In this document: in pieces, positions 7,668-29,356 of the stretch
Layout: each line of letters starts with the position of its first letter
How positions within the stretch are numbered: position 1 is the first letter of the stretch
Assembly: GCA_964502145.1 (NCBI GenBank)
Contig: CAZCVI010000002.1
Span: 117,383-181,382 of the forward strand
DNA length: 64,000 nucleotides
Origin: an uncultured Clostridia bacterium
Lineage (GTDB): Bacteria; Acidobacteriota; Aminicenantia; UBA2199
Direction of reading: 5' to 3'
The notes under the pieces: model-generated
Database searches by the model: none
Seen by the model: the letters and a program-made list of their open reading frames with translations, nothing else
What the model was told of the DNA's origin: nothing
Translations under genes and position numbers: made by a program

Positions 7668-7711
7668 ATTTTTGATTTGACATTTTGTCGTTTATAAGCT
7701 ACCATTATACT

Positions 7712-8056
7712 ATGGCCAACACACAGAGGATTTTGAAAGTTTATATGGATTCCCGCGGTAAAGAGCCTTTTATTGAGTGGTTGGAATCGATAAAGGACCG
7801 TAAAAACAGAAGTAGGATTATTACTAGATTGGATCGTTTGGAAGTCGGTAATCCCGGTGATTCCCGCCATTTGGGTAATGGGTTGTTTGAACTACGCTTG
7901 GACTTTGGCCCCGGCTTTCGGATTTATTATGGTGAAGATGACGCGGTGATCCTAATTTTGCTGGTGGGTGGCGATAAAGGGACGCAATCCGCAGATATCA
8001 AAAAAGCCCAATCTTATTGGAAGAGGTATCAGGAGGAAAAAAATGAGAAATTTTAG
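7712..8056 (+). CDS. HigB/RelE-like toxin (addiction-module killer protein, TIGR02683-like)
   Basis: MANTQRILKVYMDSRGKEPFIEWLESIKD...FRIYYGEDDAVILILLVGGDKGTQSADIKKA is a typical killer-protein block. It overlaps the next gene by 14 nt. Confidence 0.7.
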   Translation: MANTQRILKVYMDSRGKEPFIEWLESIKDRKNRSRIITRLDRLEVGNPGDSRHLGNGLFELRLDFGPGFRIYYGEDDAVILILLVGGDKGTQSADIKKAQSYWKRYQEEKNEKF

Positions 8057-8369
8057 AGATTATCTAAAAGATAAATTGGTCGATCAAGCAGAAGCAGTTT
8101 CTTATCTAAATGTCGCCCTGGAAGAGTATGAAAAAGATCACGATGCCGATGCTTTTTTGCTGGCACTACGTACAGTTACCGAGGCAAATGGCGGTATCTC
8201 TGAATTGGCAAAAAAAACCAATCTAAACAGGCAACACCTGTATCGGTCATTATCAAACAAAGGAAATCCCAGACTGATTACACTGGAAACAGTTTTGCAT
8301 GGACTGGGACTCCGGTTGTCTATTGTCCCTCTTGGAAACAAAAGTCTGGAGACGGAGCACAGAGTATAA
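8043..8369 (+). CDS. HigA-like antitoxin (addiction-module antidote, XRE-type HTH; TIGR02684-like)
   Basis: MRNFRDYLKDKLVDQAEAVSYLNVALEE...ISELAKKTNLNRQHLYRSLSNKGNPRLITLETVLHGLGLRL. Start chosen at MRNF for coupling with the toxin. Confidence 0.7.
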   Translation: MRNFRDYLKDKLVDQAEAVSYLNVALEEYEKDHDADAFLLALRTVTEANGGISELAKKTNLNRQHLYRSLSNKGNPRLITLETVLHGLGLRLSIVPLGNKSLETEHRV

Positions 8370-8407
8370 ATTTCCTGGCTGTTTCTTCCATCAAGTAGGG
8401 GCTTGAG

Positions 8408-8652: not shown

Positions 8653-8997
8653 CTATAATGAGAGTACTTTCTTTATGCCCTGTTCGACTTTTTTAAGATA
8701 TTTGGTACCAATTTTCCCGACGAATTCTGTCAATACCTCTTTATCAATGGTAATCAATTGGGAAACGTTTATGACTGAATCCTTTGTTAACGCGGACTCT
8801 TCTTTCTTTAAAAAAACGTTCCCAGGAGCTTCGGCCAATCTAAGATTGCTGGTTATAACCACCACCACAACTGTATTGATTTTACTCCTGTTAAAGGTAT
8901 CGGCCTGCATGACCAGCACAGGTCGTCTGTACCCGGGACCTGAACCTGAGGGTAAATCCAAATCAGCCCACCAAATGGACCCCCGCTCAATTACCAT
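8653..8997 (-). CDS. mazF: MazF/PemK-family endoribonuclease toxin
   Basis: 114 aa with SIWWADLDLPSGSGPGYRRPVLVMQADTFN...TVVVVVITSNLRLAEAPGNVFL, a classic MazF/PemK pattern. Overlaps the upstream antitoxin gene by 7 nt. Confidence 0.75.
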   Translation of the reverse strand: MVIERGSIWWADLDLPSGSGPGYRRPVLVMQADTFNRSKINTVVVVVITSNLRLAEAPGNVFLKKEESALTKDSVINVSQLITIDKEVLTEFVGKIGTKYLKKVEQGIKKVLSL

Positions 8998-9233
8998 TCT
9001 TCTTTTTGCACTATTTTCAACTGTGCCTGATAAAGCCCTTTATCCATTACCGAGGGATTCGTTTGATCTTCATACAATGCATTTAACTGCTGTGTTACAT
9101 TTTCCTCTTTTTTATCCTTCAGATACTCTTCTATTGCCCTCGCATAAAATTCACTGCGAGTTACCTTTAATTGGTGGGCGATTTTCTCGGCCAATGCAAA
9201 TATATTATCCGGTATGTATACTGCTGTTTTCAT
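8991..9233 (-). CDS. Cognate antitoxin of the MazF-like toxin (MazE/RHH-like, 80 aa)
   Basis: Small ORF immediately upstream of, and overlapping, the MazF-like gene. The sequence itself is only weakly diagnostic. Confidence 0.55.
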   Translation of the reverse strand: MKTAVYIPDNIFALAEKIAHQLKVTRSEFYARAIEEYLKDKKEENVTQQLNALYEDQTNPSVMDKGLYQAQLKIVQKEEW

Positions 9234-9536
9234 GCTTAAAGTATAATCCCAATAGAGGCGAATGTCAAATAAAAAACTTCCCCACGTACCGATGGAAATT
9301 AAGAGGTTAGTTGCGCCAAACTAAGCCCAGGAATTTGGGACATGTCAGTGATTCTCATTATTCTCGTTATTCTTTTTCCTCCCATTCTTCGCATTTTGTC
9401 CTAGGGATTTCCAAACTTTTGGTGGTTGTTCCAGGTGAAACTACAAAACTTGCAGATAAAAGTTGCGTATATTATAGTGCTGATTCTAATGCCTAGTATA
9501 ATATATACTTTTAAAAACGAAATGGAGGTTATAAAT

Positions 9537-11594
9537 ATGGAACTATCTTTTATGATTGCAGGTGGTGTGGGAGTTTTTGTTTTTCTCCTGGTGATTGCAT
9601 CCTTCACTAATATTGGCCCGACCCAGGTGGGGTTAGTGATGAAACGGTTCTCTTTAAAAAAGCTTCCTGGAGATAACCCAATCGCGTTTAATGGGGAAGC
9701 GGGATATCAAGCCAAATTGCTAATGCCAGGGTTGCGTTGGAAGTTTATATTGTTATATCAAGTACGAAAATTCCCCTGGGTGCAAGTACCAGCGGGGGAA
9801 ATCGGCGTGATGATATCCCAGATCGGGGCTGCACTCCCTATCGGTGCCAAATCGGCGTTTTATAAAAACGAGTTCGGGAACTTCTCCGACTTAAAGAATT
9901 TTATCTCCCAAGGCGGCCAAAAAGGTGTGCAACGCCCCGTGCTACCTCCGGGAACATTAATTCCTTTTCATCCGGTGGCGTTCCTGGTAATTACCGCTAA
10001 ACAGGTGTATGGCGTACCAGTAGACCCAGAACTGGTCAGATTGGAAGCCAGAACGGGGCGCTTAATGCCCCAATCTTTTGGTCTTGAACCAGACCAATTA
10101 AAACTGGTGATGATCCAACCGGCACCGCATGGCGAAGGCAGTGAATTGATTGATATGGTGGGTATTGTCACTACCTTGGAAGGAGACCCATTGCCTTCTG
10201 GTGCCATTGCCAGCCGCTTGAATGATTTTTACGATATCCAGGAACTGGAAGACGCAGGCAAAGATGATTCCGCCTTAATCGAAGTCCTGCTGGGTAGTAA
10301 AAATGGCTTGCATAACAATTACCAGGATTATCAGGCTTTCTTGGAAAACGGCGGACGCATCGGATTGCAACATGACCCGTTGTTGTATGGTGCATACGCA
10401 TTGAATCCGTTCCTGGTTCGGGTGGAACGTATGCCCATGCTGGTGGTGAAACAGGGTGAAGTGGCTGTTATTAAAGGGTATGTGGGCTTGCCCACCAAGG
10501 ATACTTCGGGTGATAAGTTCAAGTATGGGTCCCTGGTACGACCTGGCCACCGCGGCATCTGGCAAGAACCGTTACGAACAGGTAAATTCGCTATCAATCC
10601 TCGCTGTTACCAACCCGTGATTGTATCCACGGCTATCCTAACATTGAATTGGGCAGAAGCAGTTTCGCGGGCCCATAACTTGGACCGGCAATTATGTCAA
10701 ATTGAAGCTAAAAGTAATGAAGGATTTGTCTTTAGAATTGATCTGCAAGTGCAGATACATGTGGCCGATACCCATACACCACGGGTGATTTCCATGGTAG
10801 GAACAATGGAAAATCTGGTCAACGAAGTATTGCAAGCAGCAGTAGGAAACCACTTCCGCGATAAATTACAAAGTATGCCCGCGGTTGATTTTATTAAGAA
10901 GAGACAGGAAGTTCAAGAACAAGCGCTTATCCATGTCCGGGATCATCTGGCTTTATATCAGGTGGAAACCCGTGGGGTTTATATTCAAGATGTGGTGTTA
11001 CCCAAAGAGTTGGTCAAGGTGTTAACAGAGCGAGAAATCGCCAATCAGAACATCGAAACCTTCAAAAAAGAAAAAGAAGCAGAAGATCAACGCATCGCCA
11101 AACAGCAGGCCATGGGTACGGCAGACATGCAGTTGGCATTAGCCAAGTCGCAGGTGGAAGTGGAAATCAACACCAACCGGGCCAAAGCCCGCAAAGCAGA
11201 AGCGGATGGTGAAGCCACATACATCGAGAAAACGGGTGCGGCGCATGGTGCCAAAATACGTGCGGTAGGGTTGGCTCGTGCCGAAGGTTACGAGGCACAG
11301 GTCAAAGCGTTGGGGCAAATTCCCACGGCATTAGTTAATGCGATTAATGCTCTGTCTGAAGGCAATATGAAGATCATACCCGATGTTTTAGTCACTGGCG
11401 GTTCAGGTTCTCTGGAAGGTTTGGCTGCGACCCTAATAAAAAAATTCACCCCTAAAGCAGAATATCCCGTGGAAGAGAAGCAAAAAAGCGAAGAAATAAT
11501 GGCCAGAACAGCCGATAGGGCTGAAGATAAAGCCATGGAAGATATCGCTTGGTCAGTAAGACCAGAATTCCCAGAGGAAGTACCCACCGTATAA
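9537..11594 (+). CDS. Flotillin / SPFH (band 7) domain membrane protein with a long Ala/Lys/Glu coiled coil
   Basis: Start MELSFMIAGGVGVFVFLLVIASF (transmembrane segment) with GGAGG seven nt upstream. The upstream ATG at 9426 lacks a ribosome-binding site. SPFH core and a flotillin-type coiled-coil tail are present. Confidence 0.7.
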   Translation: MELSFMIAGGVGVFVFLLVIASFTNIGPTQVGLVMKRFSLKKLPGDNPIAFNGEAGYQAKLLMPGLRWKFILLYQVRKFPWVQVPAGEIGVMISQIGAALPIGAKSAFYKNEFGNFSDLKNFISQGGQKGVQRPVLPPGTLIPFHPVAFLVITAKQVYGVPVDPELVRLEARTGRLMPQSFGLEPDQLKLVMIQPAPHGEGSELIDMVGIVTTLEGDPLPSGAIASRLNDFYDIQELEDAGKDDSALIEVLLGSKNGLHNNYQDYQAFLENGGRIGLQHDPLLYGAYALNPFLVRVERMPMLVVKQGEVAVIKGYVGLPTKDTSGDKFKYGSLVRPGHRGIWQEPLRTGKFAINPRCYQPVIVSTAILTLNWAEAVSRAHNLDRQLCQIEAKSNEGFVFRIDLQVQIHVADTHTPRVISMVGTMENLVNEVLQAAVGNHFRDKLQSMPAVDFIKKRQEVQEQALIHVRDHLALYQVETRGVYIQDVVLPKELVKVLTEREIANQNIETFKKEKEAEDQRIAKQQAMGTADMQLALAKSQVEVEINTNRAKARKAEADGEATYIEKTGAAHGAKIRAVGLARAEGYEAQVKALGQIPTALVNAINALSEGNMKIIPDVLVTGGSGSLEGLAATLIKKFTPKAEYPVEEKQKSEEIMARTADRAEDKAMEDIAWSVRPEFPEEVPTV

Positions 11595-12078: not shown

Positions 12079-13923
12079 ATGATCGAAGCCAACGAAGTCA
12101 AAAAGCACCTCCTTTCCGTTTTAAAAGGTGAGTCGCTCCTGCTGATTGTTCCACCTTTTGTTAATACGCGGACTCCCATCATGGGTCCTCATATCCTGCA
12201 AACCATTGCCCAACAGCAGGGTTATGCAGTAGATATTCTATATGTGAATCTTCTGCTGGCCTCACTCATTGGTACCCAGTTGGTCGAAAGCATCAGCTAC
12301 GGTCAACCTTTTCGTTTATTAGGCGAGCGTTTATTTGCCCGTAGCGCCTATGGATTACCACCATTGGGAAAATTTCCAGAACTCTGTTTGGACGCGGTGA
12401 AATCGGTGTTCGGCGATAAAGAAGAATATCCCATGGAAGCCTTTGAATACAAGTATTATGAGACAACCGATTTCCAAGCCGATACGTACCACCACCTGGA
12501 AAATATCTGCTATGATCTGGTAACAGAGATATCAGAAACCATTGCGGGTATGAATTATCAGATGGTGGGTTGTTCGAGTAACTGGGAACAAAACAATTGC
12601 TCCATCGCCTTGATCAATGCGATCAAAAAACGTCGACCCGACATTATTACCTTGATGGGCGGCTCCAACTGCGAGGGGGAAATGGCAGAAGGAATTGCTT
12701 CACTCAGCCACTCTATTGATTATATCTTTTCCGGGGAGAGCGATCTTACCTTCCCTGACTTCTTAAAAAAACATAAAGCTGGCCAATTACCCTCGAACCG
12801 GATTATCGTGGGCGAACCGGTTACTGACCTGGATAATATCCCGCTCCCCTGTTATGATAGTTATTTCCAACAATCGCGTTGTTTTTTCGGCGCTCAGCCC
12901 AGCGGAGAAAATATCCTGGCCTATGAAACCAGCCGCGGTTGCTGGTGGGGACAATGTACCTTTTGCGGGCAAAATGGCAAACGGAGCCGTTTTCGCCCCA
13001 AAGCTGCCAAGAAAGTCGCTGCTGAATTGGGTGAAATGAATCGCCAGTACCCGGATAAACGCATTCTGCTCATAGATAAAGTGATGCCCATCTCTATCTA
13101 CAACGAACTGCTCCCCTTGTTAGAGCAAAACGGAGTGACAGCACCCATGAGCTGTGAACACCGGCCAGACCTATCCTTTCAAGAACTGCTGGACTTAAAA
13201 AAAGCCAATGTGAATATCATCAAGTTCGGTATTGAAACGCTGTCCAGCGGATTATTAAAACTAATGAATAAAGGCGTGATTGCCGCGCAGAATATTTCTC
13301 TACTTCGCCATGCTGCGGCCTGCGGCGTGCTAATCGATTGGAATATGCTGTGGGGGTTCCCCAATGACAGGTTAGAACACTACCAGGAGATATTGGAACT
13401 GCTGCCTTTACTCCATCATCTCTGTCCCCCTGCGGTATTTCGTCACCTTAGTTTGGATCGCTTTTCTCCTTATTTCGAGAAGCCCCAGAAATATAATATC
13501 CGTAACCTCCGTCCCTGGGCGGTGAACGATATGGTTTACCCGGAGTGGGCAGATATGGAGAAACTAGCTTACCGCTTCATCGGCGATTATCCCAGTGACT
13601 CTCACGACCACCCAGAAATAATCGGCGCCATCTCCCGAGAAGTGGAAAACTGGCAAGCTTCCAGAAAAGATGCCAAGTTGCATCTGAAGGCTGTCGGTTA
13701 TCATTATATTCTCCAAGATACCCGGAAAATAAAAGCGGGCTGCAAACCCCAATTACTGGATGAAGAACAAGCCAGGGCCGTGATGACACCATCCGCCTAC
13801 AAGACTTCAAGCGGACAAGAATGGGCGGTGACTGAAAAACTGGGGGTAGTGGTGGATGGTTTGTACGTTCCCCTGGTGACCGCTTCCCCAGAATTATTAT
13901 TACACTTTATGGAGGAATCATGA
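12079..13923 (+). CDS. B12-binding-domain radical SAM RiPP maturase (rSAM_ocin-like), non-canonical Cx4Cx2C cluster motif
   Basis: N-terminal Rossmann-like B12-binding signature (ITLMGGSNCEGEMAEG). Cys triad SRGCWWGQCTFCG at 12940-12966. Sits beside the YcaO and NHLP precursor genes. Confidence 0.7.
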   Translation: MIEANEVKKHLLSVLKGESLLLIVPPFVNTRTPIMGPHILQTIAQQQGYAVDILYVNLLLASLIGTQLVESISYGQPFRLLGERLFARSAYGLPPLGKFPELCLDAVKSVFGDKEEYPMEAFEYKYYETTDFQADTYHHLENICYDLVTEISETIAGMNYQMVGCSSNWEQNNCSIALINAIKKRRPDIITLMGGSNCEGEMAEGIASLSHSIDYIFSGESDLTFPDFLKKHKAGQLPSNRIIVGEPVTDLDNIPLPCYDSYFQQSRCFFGAQPSGENILAYETSRGCWWGQCTFCGQNGKRSRFRPKAAKKVAAELGEMNRQYPDKRILLIDKVMPISIYNELLPLLEQNGVTAPMSCEHRPDLSFQELLDLKKANVNIIKFGIETLSSGLLKLMNKGVIAAQNISLLRHAAACGVLIDWNMLWGFPNDRLEHYQEILELLPLLHHLCPPAVFRHLSLDRFSPYFEKPQKYNIRNLRPWAVNDMVYPEWADMEKLAYRFIGDYPSDSHDHPEIIGAISREVENWQASRKDAKLHLKAVGYHYILQDTRKIKAGCKPQLLDEEQARAVMTPSAYKTSSGQEWAVTEKLGVVVDGLYVPLVTASPELLLHFMEES

Positions 13924-13950: not shown

Positions 13951-16215
13951 ATGTTAGAAAATCCTATACTGAAACCCTGTTACGGTGCCGAATGTATCGA
14001 CACCGATCACGTCTTGTTAATATCGGAAAAAGACAATGTCTTATTAACCGGGAAACTTTACAACCTGGTACTGTCTGAAATTTGTGGCAGCACGCTTTCG
14101 TTGGCTGAAGTGGTGGACCGATTGCGTGGAAAACTTTCTGAAATGGAAATCTATTTAGCGCTGGAATCTCTGGAAAAGAAAGGGTACATCACTGAAGCTG
14201 CACCAGCACTACCACCAGAAACCTCTGCTTATTGGAGCAGCCAGGGGATGGAGATCAATCGGTTTCTCACGGTTTTGCAGGAAAAGACCATTACCCTTAC
14301 ATCTGTTGGTTCCCTTGCAACCGAATTATTTAGTCAGGCATTCGCTTTAACTGGCCTTAAATGCAGTGAAACCGGGGCGTTGCATGTTTATATTACCGAT
14401 GATTACCAGCGCCATCAGTTTGCCACCATCAATCAGGACGCTCTAAAAACCGGGCAGCCCTGGATGCTGGTTAAACCGGTGGGTGTGGAACTGTGGGTGG
14501 GGCCGATTTTCCTGCCAGGACAAACGGGTTGTTGGGAATGCTTGAAACAGCGCTTGGATATGAACCGTCCTGTAGATGCGTTTTACAAGACCCAGAAAAA
14601 CACCCGTCATCACCTATCTCTTCCCGCTGCTTTTTCCCCGCTTTCCTGGCAAATTGCCGCCAATATGACCGCGCTGGAGATAACCAAATGGCTTTATGCC
14701 GGGCATAATGAGCGGTTGGACGGCAAACTTATTTCTTTTGATACAGCGACCATGAACACCCAATCCCATGTACTGGTCAAACGCCCCCAATGCTCCTCCT
14801 GCGGCGAACCCGGTTATTTACGCGCAGAATCCCTTCCCATTATTCCGGTGCGACGATCGTCTTGCAGTGTGACCGCATTGGGTGGCTACCGCGAAGTAGA
14901 CCCCGAAGCTACTATTGAAAAATACCAGCATCACGTTAGCCCTATTACCGGAGTGATGCCGAAACTGGAACCGTATTACCATGTCAAAGGCACACCATTA
15001 TATAACTACTCTTCGGGTCGCAATATTGCACTGCGCAGTAAATCGTTATTCTGGTTGAACCAGCATCTCCGTAGCGGCAATGGCGGCAAAGGAAAAAATT
15101 GGACCCAGGCCAAAGTCGGGGCATTGTGCGAGGCGGTGGAACGGTATTGTTTCACCTATCACGGTGACGAACCCCATATCACCACCAGTTTAAAGAATTT
15201 AGATGGCAAGGGCATCCATCCCAATACCTGCATGAATTTTAGTGACACCCAATACCAGAATAGGGTAGAGAGTAACCGGAACTGCGGTAAATTTTATTCC
15301 ATGGTGCCTATTCCCTTTGATTCTGCCCGCGAAATGGATTGGACCGCCGTGTATTCGTTGACCCACCAGATGTTCAAGTATCTGCCCTCCTGTTTTTGTT
15401 ATGCCCAATATCCGGCTGAAGATGAATTAAATCTTTTTTCCTATCCAGACAGTAATGGGTGTGCCGCTGGGAATTCCATTGAAGAAGCCATATTACAGGG
15501 TTTTCTCGAACTCGTTGAACGAGATGCTGTGGCATTATGGTGGTACAATATGCCCCGCCGAACCGCCGTGGACCTCTCTAGTTTTAACGAACCTTATTTT
15601 TTACAATTAATAGACTATTATCAGTCATTACAACGAAGTCTTTATGTATTGGATTTAACCTCTGATTTAAACATTCCCACCTTTGGCGCTGTGTCTCATC
15701 AGCTAGATGGTGGCACACAGGATATTATTTTCGGCTTTGGTTCCCACGTGGACGCCCGGATCGCATTGGAAAGAGCACTGGTAGAATTAAACCAACTTTT
15801 ACCCATCGTTGATGGTCCCGAAGTTGATAGAGCCAAAGGGAAATATTTGACCCAGGATAATAACTTTCTCCATTGGTTAAAAACCGCGACCATGGAAAAT
15901 CAACCCTATTTAGCGCCCCAGCAAGACATCGCTCCCAAAACCGCAACGGATTACCCCCAGTTATGTGAACCCACCATCTATGATAGTCTGATGTTCTGTG
16001 TAAATACAGCAGCTCAACACGGCTTGGAAACATTGGTACTTGATTTGACCCGCCCCGACATCGGGCTTAGCGTCGTCAAGATCGTTGTGCCTGGTTTAAG
16101 GCATTTCTGGCAACGTTTGGCACCTGGACGATTGTATGATGTCCCCGTTCAGATTGGCTGGCTGGCTACCCCCCTCCATGAAGCCCAGTTAAATCCCATG
16201 CCTTTATTTATATAA
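13951..16215 (+). CDS. Fused E1-like (ocin-ThiF-like docking) / YcaO cyclodehydratase, PatD/TruD-type architecture
   Basis: N-terminal half has WMLVKPVGVELWVGPIFLPGQTGCWECLKQRL (cyclodehydratase E1-like). C-terminal half has GNGGKGKNWTQAKVGALCEAVERY and SNGCAAGNSIEEAILQGFLELVERDA, which are YcaO ATP-binding signatures. Confidence 0.8.
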   Translation: MLENPILKPCYGAECIDTDHVLLISEKDNVLLTGKLYNLVLSEICGSTLSLAEVVDRLRGKLSEMEIYLALESLEKKGYITEAAPALPPETSAYWSSQGMEINRFLTVLQEKTITLTSVGSLATELFSQAFALTGLKCSETGALHVYITDDYQRHQFATINQDALKTGQPWMLVKPVGVELWVGPIFLPGQTGCWECLKQRLDMNRPVDAFYKTQKNTRHHLSLPAAFSPLSWQIAANMTALEITKWLYAGHNERLDGKLISFDTATMNTQSHVLVKRPQCSSCGEPGYLRAESLPIIPVRRSSCSVTALGGYREVDPEATIEKYQHHVSPITGVMPKLEPYYHVKGTPLYNYSSGRNIALRSKSLFWLNQHLRSGNGGKGKNWTQAKVGALCEAVERYCFTYHGDEPHITTSLKNLDGKGIHPNTCMNFSDTQYQNRVESNRNCGKFYSMVPIPFDSAREMDWTAVYSLTHQMFKYLPSCFCYAQYPAEDELNLFSYPDSNGCAAGNSIEEAILQGFLELVERDAVALWWYNMPRRTAVDLSSFNEPYFLQLIDYYQSLQRSLYVLDLTSDLNIPTFGAVSHQLDGGTQDIIFGFGSHVDARIALERALVELNQLLPIVDGPEVDRAKGKYLTQDNNFLHWLKTATMENQPYLAPQQDIAPKTATDYPQLCEPTIYDSLMFCVNTAAQHGLETLVLDLTRPDIGLSVVKIVVPGLRHFWQRLAPGRLYDVPVQIGWLATPLHEAQLNPMPLFI

Positions 16216-16322: not shown

Positions 16323-16820
16323 ATGAAAGAGAAAAATTTTACGATTACCGAAAACACGAAACCGCAGGATGTAAAAAAAATCAGGGACATTTATACCAAT
16401 TACCTGAGAGTCATGCTCAAGTGTGCTGAAGACCAAGCTTATTTTGTAGAATTTCAGAAGAACACCCGTGATATCCTGGTCAATGAAGTAGGGATGACCA
16501 TCCCGGAAGGAGTCCCAATTGTTCTTGATGACAATGTAAGATGGGCATCACTGGTCTTAAATGCAAAAGGTGCCGATGGTAGCAATTATGTGGTAAAAGA
16601 AATGGAACTGGGTATCAAAGCCTATGAAACTTGGGCTGATGGAGAACTTGAAGCGTCTATTACCCAACTTACCCATGAAGCCTGCGTTGAAGTTGATATT
16701 AAAGCCGAATTCAAGAATTTTACACCAGCAATTCGTATCCCATTTATTGATGTAACCAAGGATTTACTGGGTGAAATTAGCTTTAATAAGAAGACTGAAA
16801 TCGTTTTAACTTGTTGCTAG
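16323..16820 (+). CDS. NHLP-type (nitrile hydratase alpha-like leader) RiPP precursor peptide, 165 aa, C-terminal ...IVLTCC
   Basis: Leader block TRDILVNEVGMTIPEGVPIVLDDNVRWASLVL matches the NHLP consensus. There is no CSLCSC metal site, so it is not a true nitrile hydratase. GGAG nine nt upstream of the start. Immediately downstream of rSAM and YcaO. Confidence 0.6.
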   Translation: MKEKNFTITENTKPQDVKKIRDIYTNYLRVMLKCAEDQAYFVEFQKNTRDILVNEVGMTIPEGVPIVLDDNVRWASLVLNAKGADGSNYVVKEMELGIKAYETWADGELEASITQLTHEACVEVDIKAEFKNFTPAIRIPFIDVTKDLLGEISFNKKTEIVLTCC

Positions 16821-16833
16821 CCGTTGTTGATTT

Positions 16834-16871
16834 AGTGGGCTTCCCGGTTTTTTTTTATCAGGAAGCCCACT
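16834..16871 (+). terminator. 11-bp perfect stem (agtgggcttcc/ggaagcccact) with a 16-nt T-rich loop after the precursor gene; attenuator or terminator candidate
   Basis: Read directly. There is no downstream U-tract (the T-run lies in the loop). Confidence 0.4.
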
Positions 16872-16970
16872 GCGGACTCTGTAAAAAGAAGACTTTTATT
16901 AAACGTGGCTCTTGTTTGGGCATTGACTGATCTTAATTAATAATTTATACTTTAGTATACTTTTTATATT

Positions 16971-17036
16971 ATACTTATTTTCGTGTACTTATTTTCGTGT
17001 ACTTATTTTGTTGTATTTATTAGTGTATTTTTCTGT
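16971..17036. repeat. About 5 tandem copies of a 12-14-nt unit (GTAYTTATTTTCGT) directly upstream of the signalling-protein gene
   Basis: Read directly: tacttattttcgt gtacttattttcgt gtacttattttgtt gtatttattagt gtatttttctgt. Confidence 0.6.
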
Positions 17037-17060: not shown

Positions 17061-20000
17061 ATGAAAATTGCAGATTATTTTGTACTGGAGACGCTGTCAC
17101 ACGGACCAAGAGTTACCGTTTATAAAGCAAAAAAAGAAAACAATACTACCTCTGTTGTCTTAAAGGTCACCGAAAAAAAAACAGCCGAGAAACTTGATAT
17201 TGTTCGCTCCCTGGAACATGAATACCAATACATCAAGCAGGTGGATTCCGACTTTGTGATCAAAGGGATTCACTGGCAAGAGGAAAAAGAGGTTGCTTTT
17301 ATCGTATTGGAAGATATTGATGCTCAATCACTTAAACACTTCATCAAGGAGAAACAGCTCTCTATCCCACAGTTTTTGGACCTCGCCAAAAAGATTGTCG
17401 ATGGACTGGCAGCCATACACAGACAAAACATCATTCATAAAGATATCAATCCATCCAATATCATATGGAATCCAGAAACCGGTGGCCTAAAGATAATCGA
17501 TTTTAATATCGCCTCTAAATTCGATTTAAAATTGTCCTACCTGGGCAACCCGGAAAAACTTAAAGGCACCCTCGCTTATATCTCCCCGGAACAAACCGGT
17601 CGCATGAATCGGCGGGTGGACCAACGAACCGATCTCTATTCCCTGGGTGTCACTTTTTATGAAATGCTGACAGGCAAACTGCCCTTCGACTCAAACCAAC
17701 CCATGGAAATCGTTTATGCCCACTTGGCCAAAGAACCCCAATCCCCGCACCTACTAAATGAAGCTATCCCGGAAATTATTTCCCGGATCATCCACAAATT
17801 AATGGCCAAAAACCCAGAAGATCGCTATCAATCCGCTGAAGGCTTAAAATATGATCTGGAAAAATGTGCTCTATCACACCCGCAAACCTTTGCCCTGGGC
17901 GAAAATGATTACTCTGGCAAACTCCAAATCCCGGAAAAACTTTATGGACGTGAAGAAGAATTAGAACAACTTTTAGCAGTGTACCATCGTGTCAGTCAAG
18001 GCAACAAAGAAATGATCCTGGTGTCCGGATTCTCCGGTTCTGGGAAAACCACTTTGGTGAATGAAATTCATAAATCTATTGCCAAGGACCGGGGCTATTA
18101 TATCAGTGGAAAATTTGATCAGCTTCAACGCACGATTCCCTATTTTGCTTTTATCCAGGCACTTAACCAGTTCTGCCAGTTACTGCTGACTGAAAAACAG
18201 GAAGTGTTGAACCTATGGAAAGTAACTATCTTAAATGCCGTTGGCAAACTGGGGAGAATTCTGACCGATATTATCCCCCAATTGGAAGCTGTGATCGGGA
18301 ACCAACCGGAAGTTCCCGAAGTCAACGGTGACGATGCCAAAAAACGGTTTAATTATGTGTTTTTATGTTTTTTAAATGCCGTGGCCACTGTGGAGCATCC
18401 CCTGGTCATGTTTATCGATGATCTACAGTGGGCCGATCTGGCCTCCTTGAGCTTGCTGCAATTGATCATGGAAGACCGGAAAAGTTGCTATATATTCTTG
18501 ATAGGCGCTTACCGGGATAATGAAGTATCCCTCTCCCATCCCTTGATAACCACTCTGGCGGAATTAAAAAAACAAGCTATCCCCATCCATACTATTCCCG
18601 TTAAAAATCTCTCCCGGCAAAATGTGTCGGCGTTGCTAGTGGATACGTTTAAGACCCCAAGGAACAAAAACCAGGAGGAATTGGACGCATTGACCACTTT
18701 GATCTATCAAAAAACACAGGGTAATGCTTTTTTTACCCTTCAATTTATTGAAAACCTTTTTAAGGAAAACCTATTGTCGTTTGATTTTAAGAAATCCAGG
18801 TGGATATGGGATATCAAAAATATCGAAAAACAGAACATTACCGACAACGTGGTGGCATTACTGGTCAAAAAAATTAAAACATTGCCGGAAAAGACCCAGG
18901 AAGTTTTAAAACTGGCCGCCGCTATTGGCAATACCTTTGAATCGCCAACCTTGTCCGTTATTTCCGGGGCAACGGAAGCAGCCCATCGCCAAGCTTTGGA
19001 ACCCTCGTTGGCGGAACATCTGGTCTATCCCATAGATATAGGTATTTACAAATTTGTTCATGACCGTATTCACCAGGCTATCTACTCCATGGTACCCGAT
19101 GAAGACAAAAAACATTTGCATCTCAAAATCGGCAGATTACTGCTGGAAACATTTGACCTCCAGGATACATCAACACTTTCAAAAGAGACGGATCAGCGAA
19201 TTTTTGATACTGTTAACCATTTGAATATCGGAATTGACCTGATCATTGATGAACGGGAAAGAATTCATTTGGCCACACTGAACCTTAAAGCCGCTAAACA
19301 TGCCCGGGTAGCTGCCGCTTTTTCTATCGGTGTCGTGTATGTACGGACTGCCATACGTTTATTACCAGACAATAGCTGGCAGCAGCATTACGATCTGACT
19401 CTGTCCGTGTACAACGAGGCTGTGCTCGCCTCCTACTTATTCTTAAACCTAGCGGAGATGGAAAAATATGTTGAAATCATATTGTCCTCCACGCAAAATA
19501 TTTTACATCGCTCGGTGGCGTATGAATACCGCCTTTTGAGTTTAATCGGACAGAATAAATCCCAACAGGCCGTTGAAGCAATCTTAACCATTTTTAACCT
19601 TCTGGGAGTGACTATTCCCCCCGAACCCAGTGGTCCAGAAACAATGGCCATATTTGGAGAAGTTCAAACCATGTTAACCAGTATGAATCAGGAGACGATT
19701 GCCAATCTTCCCCTGATGACAGACGAAGCGAAATTGCAAGTGTTACGCCTTTTTTATATGGCTGGCCTTTCCTTTATGCATGGCCGTCCAACGGCATGGC
19801 CCTATGTGATCAGTAAAATGATCCATCTTATACTCACTTATGGCTTGACAGCGGAAACTCCCTATGTGATATCTCTTTATGGTGTGATCAAGGTTGTTAT
19901 GGGTGATTTTCCCAGTGCCTACCAATTGGGAGAAATGGCAGGGGAATTATTGGCCCGGGGTATCGGTAATCAAGCCATCCAGGTCAGAACCATCGGCATT

Positions 20001-22337
20001 ATCTGTTTTTATCTGCGGGGGTATAGAACCCATTTTAAAAAAATAGCCAAGGAGATGATGGATACCTACTCCCTGTGCATGGAAGTGGGTGATTTTGAAT
20101 ATGCGGGATATTCATTGGGCAATTACCTCTGGTGCCTCAATCGTACAGATACCCCGTTGGAAGAGGCATATCAGAAAGCATTGAATTGCCGGGAAACAGT
20201 CCTACAATTAAAACAACCCCTTCCGATACCACCCATATTCATTGAAATTACCATTTGCGAGAATTATCTCGGCAAAGCGGTTGATCCGGCTGTTTTGGCT
20301 ATCAACTATGATGAACTTTTTAAAAACCTACCGATTGGTTCTACTGGAATATTTAGTTGTGGGGCCAATATAAAACAAGCGATATTATTCTTCTTTTTTG
20401 AGCGGTACGATAACGTTTTGGAGTTAATGGTTTCAACTGAAAACCAATATAATGCCTTGAATATGCCGCTTACCTATTTTAGAAGCGATATCCACTTTTA
20501 TTTTACCCTGATCTATATTGAACTTTATACACGCAGTGAATCGGAAAGTGAAAAAGAAATCTGTATTACTAAGATAAACGAGAATAGAACTATTATGAAA
20601 CAGTTGGCTGAATTCGGCCCGGTAAATTTTCTGCATAAGTATTACTTGTTGGAAGCTGAATATGGCAGGGTTACCGGTAACAATAATCAAGCGCCAGAGT
20701 TCTATGACAAAGCCATAGAAACGGCTTATGAAAACGAATATATCAACGAGGCGGCCCTAGCCAACGAACTGGCCGCAAAATATTATATCCGGGAAAACCG
20801 CCGCAAATTCGCCACCTTCTACTTCATGGAAGCACGAAACTGTTATGTCCGGTGGGGCGCACTGGCAAAAGTCAAGCATTTGGATGACAACTATCCCAAA
20901 TACTTGAGTCTTGGACTCCCCGATTCTTCCTTGAGCCGCTCCTCCCTCTCCAGTACTTCAACCGGAACCGCTGGCGATTTCCTGGATGTCAAGAGTATCA
21001 TCAAAGCGTCGCAAACCCTGTCTGGTGAAGTTCAGTTAAAAAGCTTGTTGGAAAAATTAATGCAGATATTGATTGAGAATGCCGGGGCCCAAAAAAGTAT
21101 CTTGATCGAAAATAATGGCGGACGCTTGCTCATTCAAGCAGAAGGTAATACCAATGGTGTATCCGGTATTTTGCATGAGCTGCCAGTGGACGAGTCGGAT
21201 AAAATACCATTGTCCATCATCCATTATGTGGCCCACAGTAAACGGCAATTGGTTTTTGATAACCTATCTACAGACCCCAATTATACGACCGACGAATATA
21301 TCCAAAAAAATCAGCCCAAATCCGTGGTGTGTTTTCCCATCTTAAGTAAGGGGGAAGTTTCTGCCATTGTTTATTTGGAAAACAATCTGGTGGAAGGTGT
21401 ATTTACTCCAGCCCGGTTGGAAGTGCTCAATATGCTTTCGTCGCAAATCGCCATTTCAGTGGAAAATACCCATCTGTATGAGACGCTTGAAGAAAAAGTA
21501 AGGCAGCGTACTATTGCATTGCAAAAAGCACATCAAGAACTGGAGAAGAATCATAAAGAACTGGCGGAAAGTCATAGGAAAATCAATGACAGCGTGAACT
21601 ATGCCAGCAAGATACAAGAGGCGGTTTTACCCGGCGAGGAAATCCTCAACACCCTTCTTCCCCAACACTTTGTCTTCTATCGGCCCTGCTCGGTGGTCAG
21701 CGGTGATTTTTATTGGATCAAACCGGTGGGACAAAAAATAGTGGTGGCTACTGCCGACTGTACTGGCCACGGGATTCCCGGTGCCTTGCTAAGTATGCTG
21801 GGCATGACCTTTCTGAGCGAAATCGTGCCCCACCTGGCCGAACAAAACCAACTGAGCGCGGCCAATGTACTGGACCAATTACGCCAAAAAGTCAAAATCT
21901 CCTTGAAACAAGAAGGAAAGGTTCGTCAACAAAGAGATGGGATGGATATTGCGCTGTGCATCATCGATCCTGCGGATAAGCAATTGCAATATGCCGGTGC
22001 TTATAATCCGTTTTACTTGATCAAGGATAATCATCTTCTGGAAACAAAAGCAGACACCATGCCCATTGGTTTTTCCACCAAAGAACGCCCCTTTACCAAT
22101 CATGATGTCAGGTTTGAAAACGGGAGTATGGTTTACCTTTTCTCCGATGGGTACGCCGATCAAAACGGTGAGGATGGCGAGGTGAATTTTAGCAGGGTGA
22201 AATTTAAGAAATTGTTGACGGAAATCAGCAGGGAACCGGTAGCCAAACAAAAAGAAGTGTTAATCCAACGCTTCGAGCAATGGCGGGGTGACCTGCCACA
22301 ACGTGACGATGTCCTGGTCCTGGGAATAAGACTATAA
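17061..22337 (+). CDS. Giant multidomain signalling protein: N-terminal Ser/Thr-kinase-like domain with degenerate motifs, AAA/NTPase (Walker A GFSGSGKTT), helical/TPR-like region, GAF, coiled coil, C-terminal PP2C/SpoIIE phosphatase
   Basis: Kinase-like motifs are VVLK, HKDINPSN and DFN. Walker A and B (LVMFIDDLQWAD) are present. PP2C motifs are SGDFYW, ADCTGHG, DGMDIAL and SDGYADQ. Confidence 0.8.
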   Translation: MKIADYFVLETLSHGPRVTVYKAKKENNTTSVVLKVTEKKTAEKLDIVRSLEHEYQYIKQVDSDFVIKGIHWQEEKEVAFIVLEDIDAQSLKHFIKEKQLSIPQFLDLAKKIVDGLAAIHRQNIIHKDINPSNIIWNPETGGLKIIDFNIASKFDLKLSYLGNPEKLKGTLAYISPEQTGRMNRRVDQRTDLYSLGVTFYEMLTGKLPFDSNQPMEIVYAHLAKEPQSPHLLNEAIPEIISRIIHKLMAKNPEDRYQSAEGLKYDLEKCALSHPQTFALGENDYSGKLQIPEKLYGREEELEQLLAVYHRVSQGNKEMILVSGFSGSGKTTLVNEIHKSIAKDRGYYISGKFDQLQRTIPYFAFIQALNQFCQLLLTEKQEVLNLWKVTILNAVGKLGRILTDIIPQLEAVIGNQPEVPEVNGDDAKKRFNYVFLCFLNAVATVEHPLVMFIDDLQWADLASLSLLQLIMEDRKSCYIFLIGAYRDNEVSLSHPLITTLAELKKQAIPIHTIPVKNLSRQNVSALLVDTFKTPRNKNQEELDALTTLIYQKTQGNAFFTLQFIENLFKENLLSFDFKKSRWIWDIKNIEKQNITDNVVALLVKKIKTLPEKTQEVLKLAAAIGNTFESPTLSVISGATEAAHRQALEPSLAEHLVYPIDIGIYKFVHDRIHQAIYSMVPDEDKKHLHLKIGRLLLETFDLQDTSTLSKETDQRIFDTVNHLNIGIDLIIDERERIHLATLNLKAAKHARVAAAFSIGVVYVRTAIRLLPDNSWQQHYDLTLSVYNEAVLASYLFLNLAEMEKYVEIILSSTQNILHRSVAYEYRLLSLIGQNKSQQAVEAILTIFNLLGVTIPPEPSGPETMAIFGEVQTMLTSMNQETIANLPLMTDEAKLQVLRLFYMAGLSFMHGRPTAWPYVISKMIHLILTYGLTAETPYVISLYGVIKVVMGDFPSAYQLGEMAGELLARGIGNQAIQVRTIGIICFYLRGYRTHFKKIAKEMMDTYSLCMEVGDFEYAGYSLGNYLWCLNRTDTPLEEAYQKALNCRETVLQLKQPLPIPPIFIEITICENYLGKAVDPAVLAINYDELFKNLPIGSTGIFSCGANIKQAILFFFFERYDNVLELMVSTENQYNALNMPLTYFRSDIHFYFTLIYIELYTRSESESEKEICITKINENRTIMKQLAEFGPVNFLHKYYLLEAEYGRVTGNNNQAPEFYDKAIETAYENEYINEAALANELAAKYYIRENRRKFATFYFMEARNCYVRWGALAKVKHLDDNYPKYLSLGLPDSSLSRSSLSSTSTGTAGDFLDVKSIIKASQTLSGEVQLKSLLEKLMQILIENAGAQKSILIENNGGRLLIQAEGNTNGVSGILHELPVDESDKIPLSIIHYVAHSKRQLVFDNLSTDPNYTTDEYIQKNQPKSVVCFPILSKGEVSAIVYLENNLVEGVFTPARLEVLNMLSSQIAISVENTHLYETLEEKVRQRTIALQKAHQELEKNHKELAESHRKINDSVNYASKIQEAVLPGEEILNTLLPQHFVFYRPCSVVSGDFYWIKPVGQKIVVATADCTGHGIPGALLSMLGMTFLSEIVPHLAEQNQLSAANVLDQLRQKVKISLKQEGKVRQQRDGMDIALCIIDPADKQLQYAGAYNPFYLIKDNHLLETKADTMPIGFSTKERPFTNHDVRFENGSMVYLFSDGYADQNGEDGEVNFSRVKFKKLLTEISREPVAKQKEVLIQRFEQWRGDLPQRDDVLVLGIRL

Positions 22338-22381: not shown

Positions 22382-22633
22382 TTATTTAATTTTTTTCCTT
22401 TCCGCATTGTTTTTTAATGCATTGGCAATAATCCATTCTTGCTTTTGTTGATTGGCATCTTCAATGGTTCGGTACTTAAAAACTCCGTGAGGAAAATTCG
22501 GAGGACAAAGACGATTGGCTAAATCCCAGAGTTTAACTACCTGTTTATAGTATTCTTCGTCGGGGTCAAAGCACCAGAGGGCTCTTTCAGCCTCTTGAAA
22601 ATCTTTAAACTTTTGAATTGCCATTTGGGTCAT
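22382..22633 (-). CDS. Small hypothetical protein (83 aa) overlapping the 3' end of the upstream nucleotidyltransferase-fold gene
   Basis: ORF with a 29-nt overlap. Possible second component of a two-gene module. Confidence 0.4.
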   Translation of the reverse strand: MTQMAIQKFKDFQEAERALWCFDPDEEYYKQVVKLWDLANRLCPPNFPHGVFKYRTIEDANQQKQEWIIANALKNNAERKKIK

Positions 22634-23099
22634 CCCCCTTTTGTCTCATAAGCTCATATAAAAAGAAGGCATCCCTTTTATCTTCAGATCGAAGAGTATC
22701 TTTTTTTAGTTTGAAAAGAGTCTGCGCTGTGGCCACATTTATTGGAATTTCATCAAAAGTCATAATCTCATATTCCAGATCATCATATGTCGCAAACTCT
22801 CCTAATCTGGCCATAATATCTATATAAAACCCATCTGGAGCGCCATATCGAATTACTGAATACTGATTTAATTCCTCAAAGGTAATATCAAAGATACATT
22901 CATCTTGAAAAACGTCATCTAGTGCTTTTTGAAGCTTCTTGATATTTTCGGAATTCATTTTTACAAATATATCAATATCCTGAGTAAGACGAGGTAAACC
23001 ATGGAGAATAACTGCAAATCCTCCGATTAGGATGTAGTCCACCTTTTCTTTACCTAGAGCTTTAAGTACTTTCAAAAATTTCTCGAATAATTCTGTCAT
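22605..23099 (-). CDS. Nucleotidyltransferase-fold protein (minimal NTase-like, GG...DID motif)
   Basis: VDYILIGGFAVILHGLPRLTQDIDIFV fits the hG[GS]x(9-13)DhD pattern of pol-beta-type nucleotidyltransferases. Confidence 0.5.
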   Translation of the reverse strand: MTELFEKFLKVLKALGKEKVDYILIGGFAVILHGLPRLTQDIDIFVKMNSENIKKLQKALDDVFQDECIFDITFEELNQYSVIRYGAPDGFYIDIMARLGEFATYDDLEYEIMTFDEIPINVATAQTLFKLKKDTLRSEDKRDAFFLYELMRQKGDDPNGNSKV

Positions 23100-27813: not shown

Positions 27814-29202
27814 TTGATAAATAATTTTAATGAAGGATATGACATGCCTGAAACAAATAATGAACCAAGATTCACGTGCGATTGGATTTTTAATATACTG
27901 GTGGTCTTAAGCGACGGGAAAGTGGTGTGCGGGTGCGCGGACCCTTATGGTCAGAGACCTCTGGGCCATTTACAGGAAAAGGGAATCTACGAGATTTGGA
28001 ATTCTGAGCCAGTGAAACAAATCCGCCGGGATTTGAACGCGGGACATGCCGATTTCTGCGGTCCCTGCGGTTTGAAACGGTTCCTCAAAGAAAACGAAAC
28101 GCTACCACAAGCACCGGAACACCTGGACGTATTACCCCGACTATTTTTGGAACCGACGGTGTTATGCAACCTGAACTGCTTCAAAGCGGTGTGCAGCAAA
28201 GAAGCGGATATCTTAAAATCGCGCACACGGACTATTTTTCCGGTTGAAGAATTTAAAAGTCTTTTAGATCAAGTGTGGGAGAAACTGATCCGCTTGGATT
28301 TTTTTAACTACGGCGACCCTTTTGTTCATCCACAAGCGGCGGAAATGATGGCTTATATTAAAGAAAAATACAGGCATATCTATCTGTATGTGAGTACGAA
28401 CGGATTGATGCTGGATGAAGAGAAAATAAAAATTCTGGCGGCTTCGGGGGTGGATGAGATTACATTTTCGGTGGATGGGGTAGATCAGGAATCGTATGGT
28501 CACTACCGACAGGGCGGGGATTTTAATAAAGTGCTGGGGCTGATGGCCAAAATGGTAGCGGAGCGAAATAAAATAGGTCGCGAAGTGCCTTTTATTAACT
28601 GGCGTTATATTCTGTTTAATTGGAACGATTCCGTTGCGCAGATGAAACGGGCGAAAAAACTGGCGGCCAAAATCGGCGTCGATCGTTTTACCTGGGAAAT
28701 CACGGATCACCCAGTAGAAGGGAAATCGGAAAAATACCAGATCGGCACGGAGGCATGGAAAAAGATATATTATGAAATCTGGGATACGAGCCAAATTGGC
28801 AACGTGGTGAAAAAGAATCGTTTCATGGCAAAAATAAAGGTCTTGTCTGGACGGGTGGATATGGCGGTTGGGGGTGACGCTGTGAATGTCCGGGTGCAAG
28901 TGAAAAACAAGGGGGGCGCACTGTGGCGGAAAGTAACGTGGTCGGGTCGTAGACTGGTTCGCCTGGGCGCACAATGGTATGACAGGGATAAAAAACTGCT
29001 GGACCTGAATTATGCACGGGTGTTTTTAAATAAAGACTTGGGTTATCGGAAAAAAGATATCTTAACGATCACGTTACCGCCATTATCGCAACCTGGGGAG
29101 TATTTTCTGAAGTTTGATATGGTTTCGGAGGGCAATGATTGGTTTGAAAACGGGGGCTCGCCAGTGGTGTGGGTGCCGTTTAGGGTTTATGCGGGGGGGT
29201 AA
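27814..29202 (+). CDS. Cys-rich Fe-S / radical-SAM-like protein (non-canonical CNLNCFKAVC plus N-terminal CGC...CGPCG cluster)
   Basis: TIM-barrel-like pattern (LYVSTNGLML, DEITFSVDG) after the Cys motifs. Assignment is tentative. Confidence 0.45.
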   Translation: MINNFNEGYDMPETNNEPRFTCDWIFNILVVLSDGKVVCGCADPYGQRPLGHLQEKGIYEIWNSEPVKQIRRDLNAGHADFCGPCGLKRFLKENETLPQAPEHLDVLPRLFLEPTVLCNLNCFKAVCSKEADILKSRTRTIFPVEEFKSLLDQVWEKLIRLDFFNYGDPFVHPQAAEMMAYIKEKYRHIYLYVSTNGLMLDEEKIKILAASGVDEITFSVDGVDQESYGHYRQGGDFNKVLGLMAKMVAERNKIGREVPFINWRYILFNWNDSVAQMKRAKKLAAKIGVDRFTWEITDHPVEGKSEKYQIGTEAWKKIYYEIWDTSQIGNVVKKNRFMAKIKVLSGRVDMAVGGDAVNVRVQVKNKGGALWRKVTWSGRRLVRLGAQWYDRDKKLLDLNYARVFLNKDLGYRKKDILTITLPPLSQPGEYFLKFDMVSEGNDWFENGGSPVVWVPFRVYAGG

Positions 29203-29203
29203 T

Positions 29204-29257
29204 GGGAGGAATGGGAAGTATGGGAATTATGGGAGTTATGGGAAGAATGGGATATTT
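29204..29257 (+). repeat. Six tandem 9-bp repeats (taatgggag gaatgggaa gtatgggaa ttatgggag ttatgggaa gaatgggat) directly after the stop of the upstream gene
   Basis: Read directly. The reverse complement of the unit is the same nonamer found inside the NRPS A domains. Confidence 0.85.
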
Positions 29258-29356
29258 AGAACTATTTCTGAAAACACTGAATTTTATTAAAATAAGCTTG
29301 TAAGATTTTTAAATATTTTATATGATATCAGGGTAAATAATGAATTGGAGGTTGTT

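Follow-up and report, generated by a model that had tools for sequence, protein, structure and literature searches.

Analysis of the gene at positions 17061-22337 (+ strand) in a 64-kb stretch of contig CAZCVI010000002.1, the whole of which we call the window, reveals a 1758-aa signaling protein (hereafter the kinase protein) that joins a Hanks-type kinase domain, a predicted signal transduction ATPase with numerous domains (STAND) module, a GAF domain, and a SiaA-type PP2C phosphatase. Its gene follows those of a radical S-adenosylmethionine (rSAM) methyltransferase, a YcaO cyclodehydratase, and a 165-aa protein weakly resembling the nitrile hydratase leader peptide (NHLP) precursors, which together have the character of a cluster for a peptide that is synthesized ribosomally and modified post-translationally (RiPP). 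The reading that we favor, with somewhat better than even confidence, is that the kinase protein works as a cytoplasmic STAND-type signal integrator and is the dedicated signaling partner of this rSAM/YcaO/NHLP-like four-gene module.

This reading is carried above all by synteny. Nine orthologous loci were inspected, namely, the window, L085, L086, L087, L088, L089, L090, L092, and L005, the last from an Omnitrophota metagenome-assembled genome (MAG); L numbers denote loci inspected around relatives and P numbers (P0002 and so on) denote homologues of the kinase protein. The rSAM, YcaO, small-protein, and kinase genes occur together in all nine, with flanks that otherwise differ. Over the shared first 1480 residues, the eight other orthologues are 46-57% identical to the window protein, and the pairwise identities of the YcaO and kinase proteins co-vary (r 0.60, Mantel p about 0.05). 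The cluster in the window consists of a B12-binding rSAM RiPP C-methyltransferase (12079-13923, +; TIGR03975, 437 bits against a cut-off of 282), a fused winged-helix/E1-like/YcaO cyclodehydratase (13951-16215, +; 272 bits for TIGR03604 and 159 bits for TIGR03882, each exceeding its cut-off; Pfam YcaO, E 2e-91), and the 165-aa NHLP-like protein, a precursor or partner with the C-terminus EIVLTCC (16323-16820, +; a weak TIGR03793 match and a family of 44), after which the kinase gene starts 240 nt later in the same direction, confirming the arrangement given in the original prediction. The small-protein gene adjoins the kinase gene in eight of the loci, and in L090 the order is small protein, kinase, rSAM, and YcaO, so that the kinase gene lies inside the cluster. 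In L005, where the small-protein gene is instead upstream of the enzyme genes, residues 1-1489 of the kinase protein are kept at 56% identity and the PP2C domain is replaced by a histidine kinase, receiver, and AraC output, which indicates that the sensor part travels with the cluster and that the output is exchangeable. No conserved protease or transporter was found across the nine clusters. The earlier suggestion that the protein may sense or regulate the RiPP is thus strongly supported as a matter of gene linkage; judging from these comparisons, the kinase protein is probably the dedicated sensor or regulator of the cluster, and the mechanism set out below is a proposal only.

The same neighborhood bears on the explanation that the protein is a general stress or second-messenger sensor lying by chance beside the RiPP cluster, or an anti-phage STAND/kinase defense protein. 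The architecture is indeed widespread, with at least 8000 matches, most of them not known to lie beside a YcaO gene, and a 40%-identical homologue in L091 has no YcaO neighbor; moreover, toxin-antitoxin genes flank the cluster in the window, and the PADLOC kinase models PD-T4-6 and Mad6 match the kinase domain. Synteny nevertheless makes this explanation very improbable, since the same three partner genes recur in nine of nine orthologous loci with changing flanks, and the toxin-antitoxin genes are conserved in none of the other loci. Within the kinase protein, PADLOC recognizes only the generic kinase domain (aa 5-275); it gives no match for the YcaO and small proteins and a weak one (27 bits) for the rSAM gene. 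The assignment to anti-phage defense was ruled out on these grounds.

The open reading frame (ORF), the domain order, and every motif quoted for the protein before this analysis proved to be real. A Shine-Dalgarno-like GAGGTG lies 5 nt ahead of the ATG, and the identical protein is present on four independently assembled metagenomic contigs, one of which is a 302-kb Joint Genome Institute (JGI) contig. All four Pfam domains exceed their curated gathering cut-offs: Pkinase at aa 9-263 (17085-17849, +; PF00069, E 7e-42, scoring 144 bits with the cut-off at 31.7), AAA_16 at aa 293-475 (E 2e-39), GAF at aa 1326-1466 (21036-21458, +; E 5e-12), and SpoIIE/PP2C at aa 1558-1757. Kinase-fold signatures are found as VVLK with K35 and as SPE at 175-177, with HKDINPSN at 126-133 and DFN at 147-149. 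The P-loop NTPase is intact, with GFSGSGKTT (Walker A) at 323-331 and DDLQWAD (Walker B) at 453-459, and the phosphatase motifs ADCTGHG, DGMDIAL, and SDGYADQ occupy residues 1565-1571, 1626-1632, and 1695-1701.

The altered motifs of the kinase domain were investigated by alignment with Hanks-type kinases. The domain matches the PknB structures of Staphylococcus aureus and Mycobacterium tuberculosis in phmmer with E 5e-30, and in the alignment with S. aureus PknB (4EQM), "ivhrdikpqnili" pairs with "iihkdinpsniiw," "kifdfgiak" with "kiidfnias," and "lggggmstv" with "lshgprvtv," so that HRDIKPQN corresponds to HKDINPSN, DFG to DFN, and GGGGMS to SHGPRV. Since this alignment pairs the altered motifs with their canonical counterparts, the substitutions are not misalignments, an explanation that the PknB and family alignments together rule out. 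The Lys-to-Asn change of the catalytic loop, the DFN in place of DFG, and the degenerate Gly-rich loop, which has lost two of its three glycines and is down to one, are therefore genuine.

Degeneracy in the sense of decay, by comparison, is contradicted by the family. Across the 120 best homologues, Asn stands at the position of the catalytic-loop Lys (N130) in 107 of the 119 residues at that column and Lys in one, so that Asn is the consensus of the whole family. The DFG Gly column divides the family in two: among the 49 closest homologues, none of 48 residues is Gly (D 20, N 19, S 4, H 3), whereas Gly is found in 62 of the next 71, and the same split between cluster-linked and distant members was seen in the loci read directly. 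DF[N/D/S/H] is consequently a fixed trait of the cluster-linked clade, whose active-site signature can be written in its shorter form as DF[N/D] together with [HY]xGxxF. K35 (the beta3 Lys) is Lys in all 37 close homologues that have a residue there, D128 (the catalytic Asp) is Asp in 39 of 39, and D147 (the DFG Asp) is Asp in 38 of 39; E54 (the alphaC Glu) and N133 (the catalytic-loop Asn) are as well conserved, all five being kept in 36-39 of up to 39 close homologues. Across the 120 best homologues, these residues and H126 vary hardly or not at all, the GT...SPE activation segment is retained, and the K/D/D triad is intact in 42 of the 46 members of the cluster-linked clade. Compared with the phosphatase-type homologues P0002-P0029, the kinase domain shows 51-62% identity, PP2C 49-64%, and the helical region 43-51%; because the kinase domain thus equals PP2C and exceeds the solenoid, a decaying domain was ruled out. 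On these alignments, the altered motifs are fixed, selected family traits and not signs of degeneration.

Pseudokinases have been defined by loss of the VAIK Lys, the HRD Asp, or the DFG Asp (bioRxiv 10.1101/2025.01.12.632604). Given that K35, D128, and D147 are all present, the domain is an atypical kinase and not a pseudokinase by this three-residue definition, and only the second half of the original prediction's "pseudokinase or atypical kinase" stands. It has the Hanks kinase fold by its Pfam score and holds K35, E54, D128, N133, and D147; what it lacks is a Lys in the catalytic loop, the Gly of DFG, and a GxGxxG loop. The residues for binding ATP-Mg and the catalytic Asp are thus kept, and we take the domain to be an ATP-binding regulatory or autophosphorylating module, which would have low or unusual phosphotransfer activity and would not be a decayed relic.

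A different use for such a conserved active site would be biosynthetic, with the kinase phosphorylating the tail Ser/Thr of the small protein during maturation in the manner of the kinases of class III/IV lanthipeptide synthetases, PP2C proofreading or reversing the reaction, and the STAND and GAF parts gating it. A tail Ser/Thr is conserved in nearly all 44 small proteins, including some without Cys, and the cluster-linked clade combines its own DF[N/D] and [HY]xGxxF signature with a triad kept by 42 of 46 members; the kinase domain also gives sub-threshold matches to the LanL and LanKC models, and the kinase gene of L090 lies within the cluster. The LanL (95 bits) and LanKC (60 bits) scores, however, are below the 203 bits of the PknB-type match and reflect general kinase homology, and none of the clusters encodes a lyase or elimination domain. 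The catalytic-loop Lys, which contacts the gamma-phosphate, is absent, the cluster-linked P0022 of L092 lacks even the DFG Asp, and close relatives have swapped the output for a histidine kinase, receiver, and AraC, as signaling proteins do. We consider this role decidedly unlikely.

The middle of the protein supports the signal-integrator reading at the level of predicted fold. Residues 290-1320 have no sequence relative in the Protein Data Bank (PDB), and an AlphaFold2 model of the middle region was built on 39 homologues, reaching a predicted local distance difference test (pLDDT) of 84.7 and a predicted template modeling score (pTM) of 0.68. In the model, a P-loop alpha/beta domain and a winged-helix part are accompanied by a solenoid of about 600 residues whose helices are paired throughout, mostly at pLDDT >85, in line with the long helical region that had been noted from the sequence. 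The best Foldseek matches are the STAND protein 6MFV with tetratricopeptide repeats (TPR; E 9e-10), Apaf-1, Cdc6/Orc1, and MalT (8BOB). From this STAND-like fold and the intact Walker A and B motifs, the middle region is predicted to be a STAND NTPase with a TPR-like sensor arm, the model containing all of its elements (Walker A/B, winged helix/arm, and repeat sensor). The nucleotide-binding module, with the AAA_16 P-loop and the helical/winged-helix part, is encoded at 17937-19055 (+), and the presumed sensor arm, an all-helical TPR-like solenoid of about 600 aa (aa ~680-1282), at 19098-20906 (+).

The same predicted fold of P-loop module, winged helix, and TPR-like arm is shared with the STAND regulators PknK of M. 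tuberculosis, MalT of Escherichia coli, and 6MFV, and some homologues of the kinase protein are annotated "serine/threonine-protein kinase PknK." The kinase protein differs from these regulators in having no sequence-level match to a solved STAND structure and in carrying two enzymatic end domains plus a GAF domain; it also lacks the catalytic-loop Lys, whereas the catalytic loop of PknK is canonical (HRDLKPxN). The highest conservation in the protein is that of the GAF domain, with 58-81% identity to the 39 best homologues (60-81% among P0002-P0029), as against 37-53% for the solenoid, and its PDB matches are weak (the GAF domain of a cGMP-phosphodiesterase and a sensor protein).

The output end was examined by comparison with SiaA. 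The coiled-coil linker and PP2C domain (aa 1473-1757; 21477-22331, +) match the NCBIfam SiaA model (NF038263) with 207.8 bits over model positions 383-657, a match covering the last 285 residues and lying below the whole-protein equivalog cut-off of 700. The sole PDB match of the phosphatase region is SiaA-PP2C (6K4E, E 2e-43), and in that alignment the listed active-site residues of SiaA, D457, D474, G477, D534, D600, G601, D604, and D653 (PMC7647112), all fall on identical residues. The phosphatase, with all metal-binding residues conserved, is therefore intact as first supposed and has a SiaA-type active site. In Pseudomonas aeruginosa, the partner-switch protein SiaC is dephosphorylated by SiaA and phosphorylated by SiaB (PMC7647112). 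Relative to SiaA of the P. aeruginosa SiaABCD system (6K4E; PMC7647112), the linker and PP2C are homologous and the metal-binding set identical, whereas the input is membrane/HAMP in SiaA and kinase-STAND-GAF here, and the window holds no SiaB, SiaC, or SiaD genes.

Sia-type genes do accompany several relatives. SiaB-family kinase genes (NF038262, above cut-off) and SiaC-like genes adjoin the orthologues in L088, L089, and L090 (L088 13326-14266; L089 85-480 and 13750-14692; L090 2885-7094), and behind them in L090 come the genes of a hybrid histidine kinase with an Hpt domain and of a receiver-GGDEF protein, a gene order that suggests a cyclic di-GMP (c-di-GMP) output for the clade. In L009 and L036 (gammaproteobacterial MAGs), SiaB/SiaC-like genes are likewise the direct downstream neighbors of homologues with 34% identity. 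These neighbors weigh on the idea that the protein is a self-contained switch, in which a competent Hanks Ser/Thr kinase and the PP2C domain act on the same SiaC/STAS-like substrate, the kinase replacing SiaB and the RiPP cluster being one of several targets. A single polypeptide unites kinase and phosphatase, conservation extends to the triad, the GT...SPE segment, and the alphaC Glu, and no SiaB gene lies near the kinase gene in the window, in L085-L087, or in L092. However, wherever SiaC-like genes adjoin, in L088, L089, L090, L009, and L036, a SiaB-family gene is present as well, so that the Hanks domain is no substitute for SiaB; it also lacks the catalytic-loop Lys and the DFG Gly, and about 40% of the wider CP1 family of kinases are pseudokinases (PMC12599244). 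On balance, a self-contained switch is unlikely.

The small protein that would link the enzymes to the kinase protein belongs to a sharply limited family. It scores 18.7 bits against TIGR03793 (NHLP), below the cut-off of 50.9; a word-indexed homologue search with the 165-aa protein retrieved only itself, and an exhaustive HMMER search of 1.84 billion representatives gave a family of 44. Common to its members are an NHLP-like N-terminal segment and a C-terminus under strong conservation, LPFFD..D.L.E.KF.D..EIIL[ST]x[C/A], with a Ser/Thr two to three residues from the end in nearly all 44; several end in Ser/Thr-Ala and contain no Cys at all. The AlphaFold2 model (pLDDT 90.4, pTM 0.82) combines three helices with a beta-rich domain in which ten strands are predicted, and leaves just the last ~3 residues free. 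This model has no significant PDB fold match (best E 0.03), and a likeness to nitrile hydratase was not demonstrable structurally. The precursor of L088 (102 aa) gives sub-threshold matches to TIGR03793 and TIGR03795, no NCBIfam match was obtained for the small ORFs of L005, L045, and L092, and that of L045 looks NHLP-like by eye. It is conceivable, though doubtful, that the small protein is a folded intracellular protein whose C-terminal tail is turned by the YcaO and rSAM enzymes into an azoline, thioamide, or methylated tag to be read or acted on by the STAND kinase-phosphatase, and is not the precursor of an exported antibiotic. Were this so, the four genes would be a new kind of signaling module in which RiPP-style modification makes the ligand or cofactor of a cytoplasmic sensor, and the Burkholderia TOMM (thiazole/oxazole-modified microcin) kinase/cyclase systems would be a second instance.

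For the kinase protein as signal integrator, we infer the following order of events, in which ligand, target, and kinase activity are conjectural. A ligand would be read by the TPR-like solenoid, the GAF domain, or both; the most plausible candidate is the small protein's C-terminal tail once modified by YcaO and rSAM, or a product released from that tail. On binding, the AAA_16 module would exchange nucleotide and oligomerize, as MalT or Apaf-1 does, and this would switch the C-terminal SiaA-type PP2C, which could then dephosphorylate a SiaC-like partner-switch phosphoprotein and lead to a c-di-GMP or transcriptional output.

Several observations weigh against this reading. Gene linkage would fit equally well a regulator that answers an unrelated cue, and the binding of the small protein or its product to the sensor is part of the proposal. 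No SiaB or SiaC homologue was found by tblastn in the 64-kb window, nor any within 10 kb of L085, L086, and L087 or within 8 kb of L092. The more distant family members, at about 40% identity, lack a YcaO neighbor, as in L091 (Cytophagales), where no cluster gene of any kind adjoins. Within the clade, the cluster-linked orthologue P0022 (L092) reads SFD for DFD/DFN, and P0044, P0046, and P0049, whose output is a histidine kinase, are without the catalytic or DFG Asp; for this reason, kinase chemistry is not universally required in the clade. Finally, a hairpin and a possible separate promoter, described below, intervene between the small-protein and kinase genes, so that the two may or may not be co-transcribed.

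A large kinase-ATPase as part of NHLP/YcaO clusters was proposed in 2010 as TIGR03903 (Haft et al. 2010, PMC2887384), the TOMM system kinase/cyclase fusion protein of the Burkholderia-type ("NHLP-Burk") clusters, whose precursors agree in description with the small protein (PMC2887384). Both proteins are large and cytoplasmic, a Ser/Thr kinase at the N-terminus preceding an AAA_16-type ATPase and helical repeats, and both lie beside a fused cyclodehydratase/docking YcaO and an NHLP-related precursor ending in Cys or Cys-Cys. The AAA_16 region matches TIGR03903 at E 9e-40. In neighborhood, the kinase protein fits the family, with a YcaO above the TIGR03882 and TIGR03604 cut-offs and a small protein that ends in CC, yet scores below the NHLP cut-off; in score and architecture, it does not, reaching 136 bits against 705.75, with AAA_16 alone as the best stretch and a GAF domain and SiaA-type PP2C where the cyclase domain would be. 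The window cluster further differs in its extra B12 rSAM methyltransferase, in having a single, weakly NHLP-like protein of ~165 aa instead of a tandem precursor pair, and in the host lineages, here uncultured sediment bacteria and an Omnitrophota MAG. The family name "TOMM system kinase/cyclase" comes from neighborhood alone, and to our knowledge, the function of TIGR03903 proteins has never been determined. No functional study of kinase-ATPase proteins beside NHLP/YcaO clusters was found in the literature.

A second set of relatives is formed by the CP1 kinases, which are always fused to a COG3899 ATPase and often to GAF or PAS, about 40% of them being pseudokinases (PMC12599244), and by the cyanobacterial cbSTKIII "dual protein kinases" such as HstK, "KD" kinases with substitutions of the DFG Gly (PMC2176072); the two are treated as equivalent (bioRxiv 10.1101/2025.01.12.632604; PMC12599244; PMC2176072). 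Judged by architecture, the kinase protein belongs with them, since it combines a kinase, a COG3899-type ATPase, and a GAF domain without transmembrane segments, and the JGI labels of its homologues read "predicted ATPase/...." It shares with them HKD in place of HRD, replacement of the DFG Gly, and the kinase-ATPase-GAF/PAS fusion, and cyanobacterial CP1-type members are 41-44% identical over the first 700 residues. By contrast, its output is PP2C and not the histidine kinase of CP1/HstK proteins, and it keeps the K/D/D triad, whereas about 40% of CP1 members are pseudokinases. The CP1/cbSTKIII literature cited here (10.1101/2025.01.12.632604, PMC12599244, PMC2176072) makes no mention of a link to YcaO or RiPP clusters. 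An assay of a CP1/cbSTKIII-type kinase domain was not found in the literature, the coverage of which did not extend to the original HstK study.

The domain architecture is already named by NCBI, the 38%-identical P0070 being called [quoted passage not shown] and the pairing of a kinase-ATPase with NHLP and YcaO has been known since 2010. New are a distinct variant in tight linkage, whose outputs are GAF with SiaA-type PP2C (or histidine kinase/AraC), a DF[N/D] signature particular to the clade, a very small dedicated small-protein family, and the absence of conserved export or cleavage genes. The window and its relatives thus provide a second, independent version of the kinase-ATPase/NHLP-YcaO pairing, here with an output in a recognizable pathway (SiaA-type PP2C, or histidine kinase/AraC in a relative). 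A small, sharply defined precursor family free of conserved export and protease genes makes it testable whether RiPP-type modification can serve as an intracellular STAND signal. Moreover, the window and its relatives form a natural active-site series (Asn for Lys; DFN, DFD, and SFD for DFG) in which the triad is mostly retained, useful for asking what CP1-type bacterial kinase domains do.

The 240-nt spacer ahead of the kinase gene holds three features, all on the + strand. A GC-rich hairpin of 38 nt (16834-16871) directly follows the precursor gene; the 76-nt stretch with the hairpin at its core (16815-16890) folds at -28.6 kcal/mol (z -3.5), and none of 200 shuffles was as good. GC-rich hairpins occur at the same position in L085, L086, and L087, with the kinase gene starting about 40-60 nt later in two of the three. 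A canonical intrinsic terminator after the small-protein gene was rejected, the scan being negative: the loop exceeds 8 nt, and the T-run sits in the loop and not after the stem. The hairpin is a probable attenuator or RNA-stability element, and its placement fits partial read-through from the small-protein gene. Partial read-through past such a hairpin after the precursor gene is an arrangement found in other RiPP operons. Downstream lies a sigma-70-like match, TTGACT-17-TATACT (16923-16951), which agrees with the consensus at 10 of 12 positions and is a consensus match only, the region overall not being enriched over shuffles.

The tandem repeat that had been described as a 13-nt array at 16971-17036 in the promoter does exist, but its period is 14 nt: the unit TACTTATTTTCGTG is present in 3.6 copies at 16972-17021 (Tandem Repeats Finder score 79, 91% matches), with a degenerate tail to ~17036. 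As the array is downstream of the best sigma-70-like match, it more likely occupies a 5' untranslated region or operator position than promoter hexamers. All three close matches to the unit within the 64 kb fall inside the array, and the spacer, repeat included, is base-for-base identical in four assemblies, with no sign of copy-number variation. The repeat is absent from the intergenic regions of the orthologous loci; unique to this locus, it was ruled out as a conserved regulatory element.

Other observations concern the surroundings of the cluster and of its relatives. A YcaO gene of 42% identity lies upstream of some cyanobacterial homologues (34-39% identity), the genes in between being different. 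In L006 (9288-9428) and L047 (9286-9432), short fragments resembling the YcaO C-terminus (45-47% identity over ~48 aa) are found just upstream of kinase-PP2C genes of cyanobacteria that are otherwise without a YcaO gene, and these fragments may be remnants of a lost cluster. In the window, the toxin-antitoxin-type genes flanking the cluster, none of them conserved in the orthologous loci, include a gene for a PemK-like toxin and its small partner as well as a Gp49/HI1420 pair upstream, at 8653-9233 (-) and about 7700-8370 (+). Immediately downstream of the kinase gene and convergent with it, an AbiEii-like/DUF6036 nucleotidyltransferase gene with an overlapping ORF of 80-83 aa occupies 22382-23099 (-). 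A 722-aa SPFH/Band_7-domain protein (9426-11594, +) is encoded directly upstream of the cluster on the same strand and is not conserved beside the cluster elsewhere. Further along, at 27814-29300 (+), an ORF of 33 aa is called directly after the gene of a second radical-SAM enzyme, which carries a SPASM domain, and the two could constitute a separate small RiPP locus.

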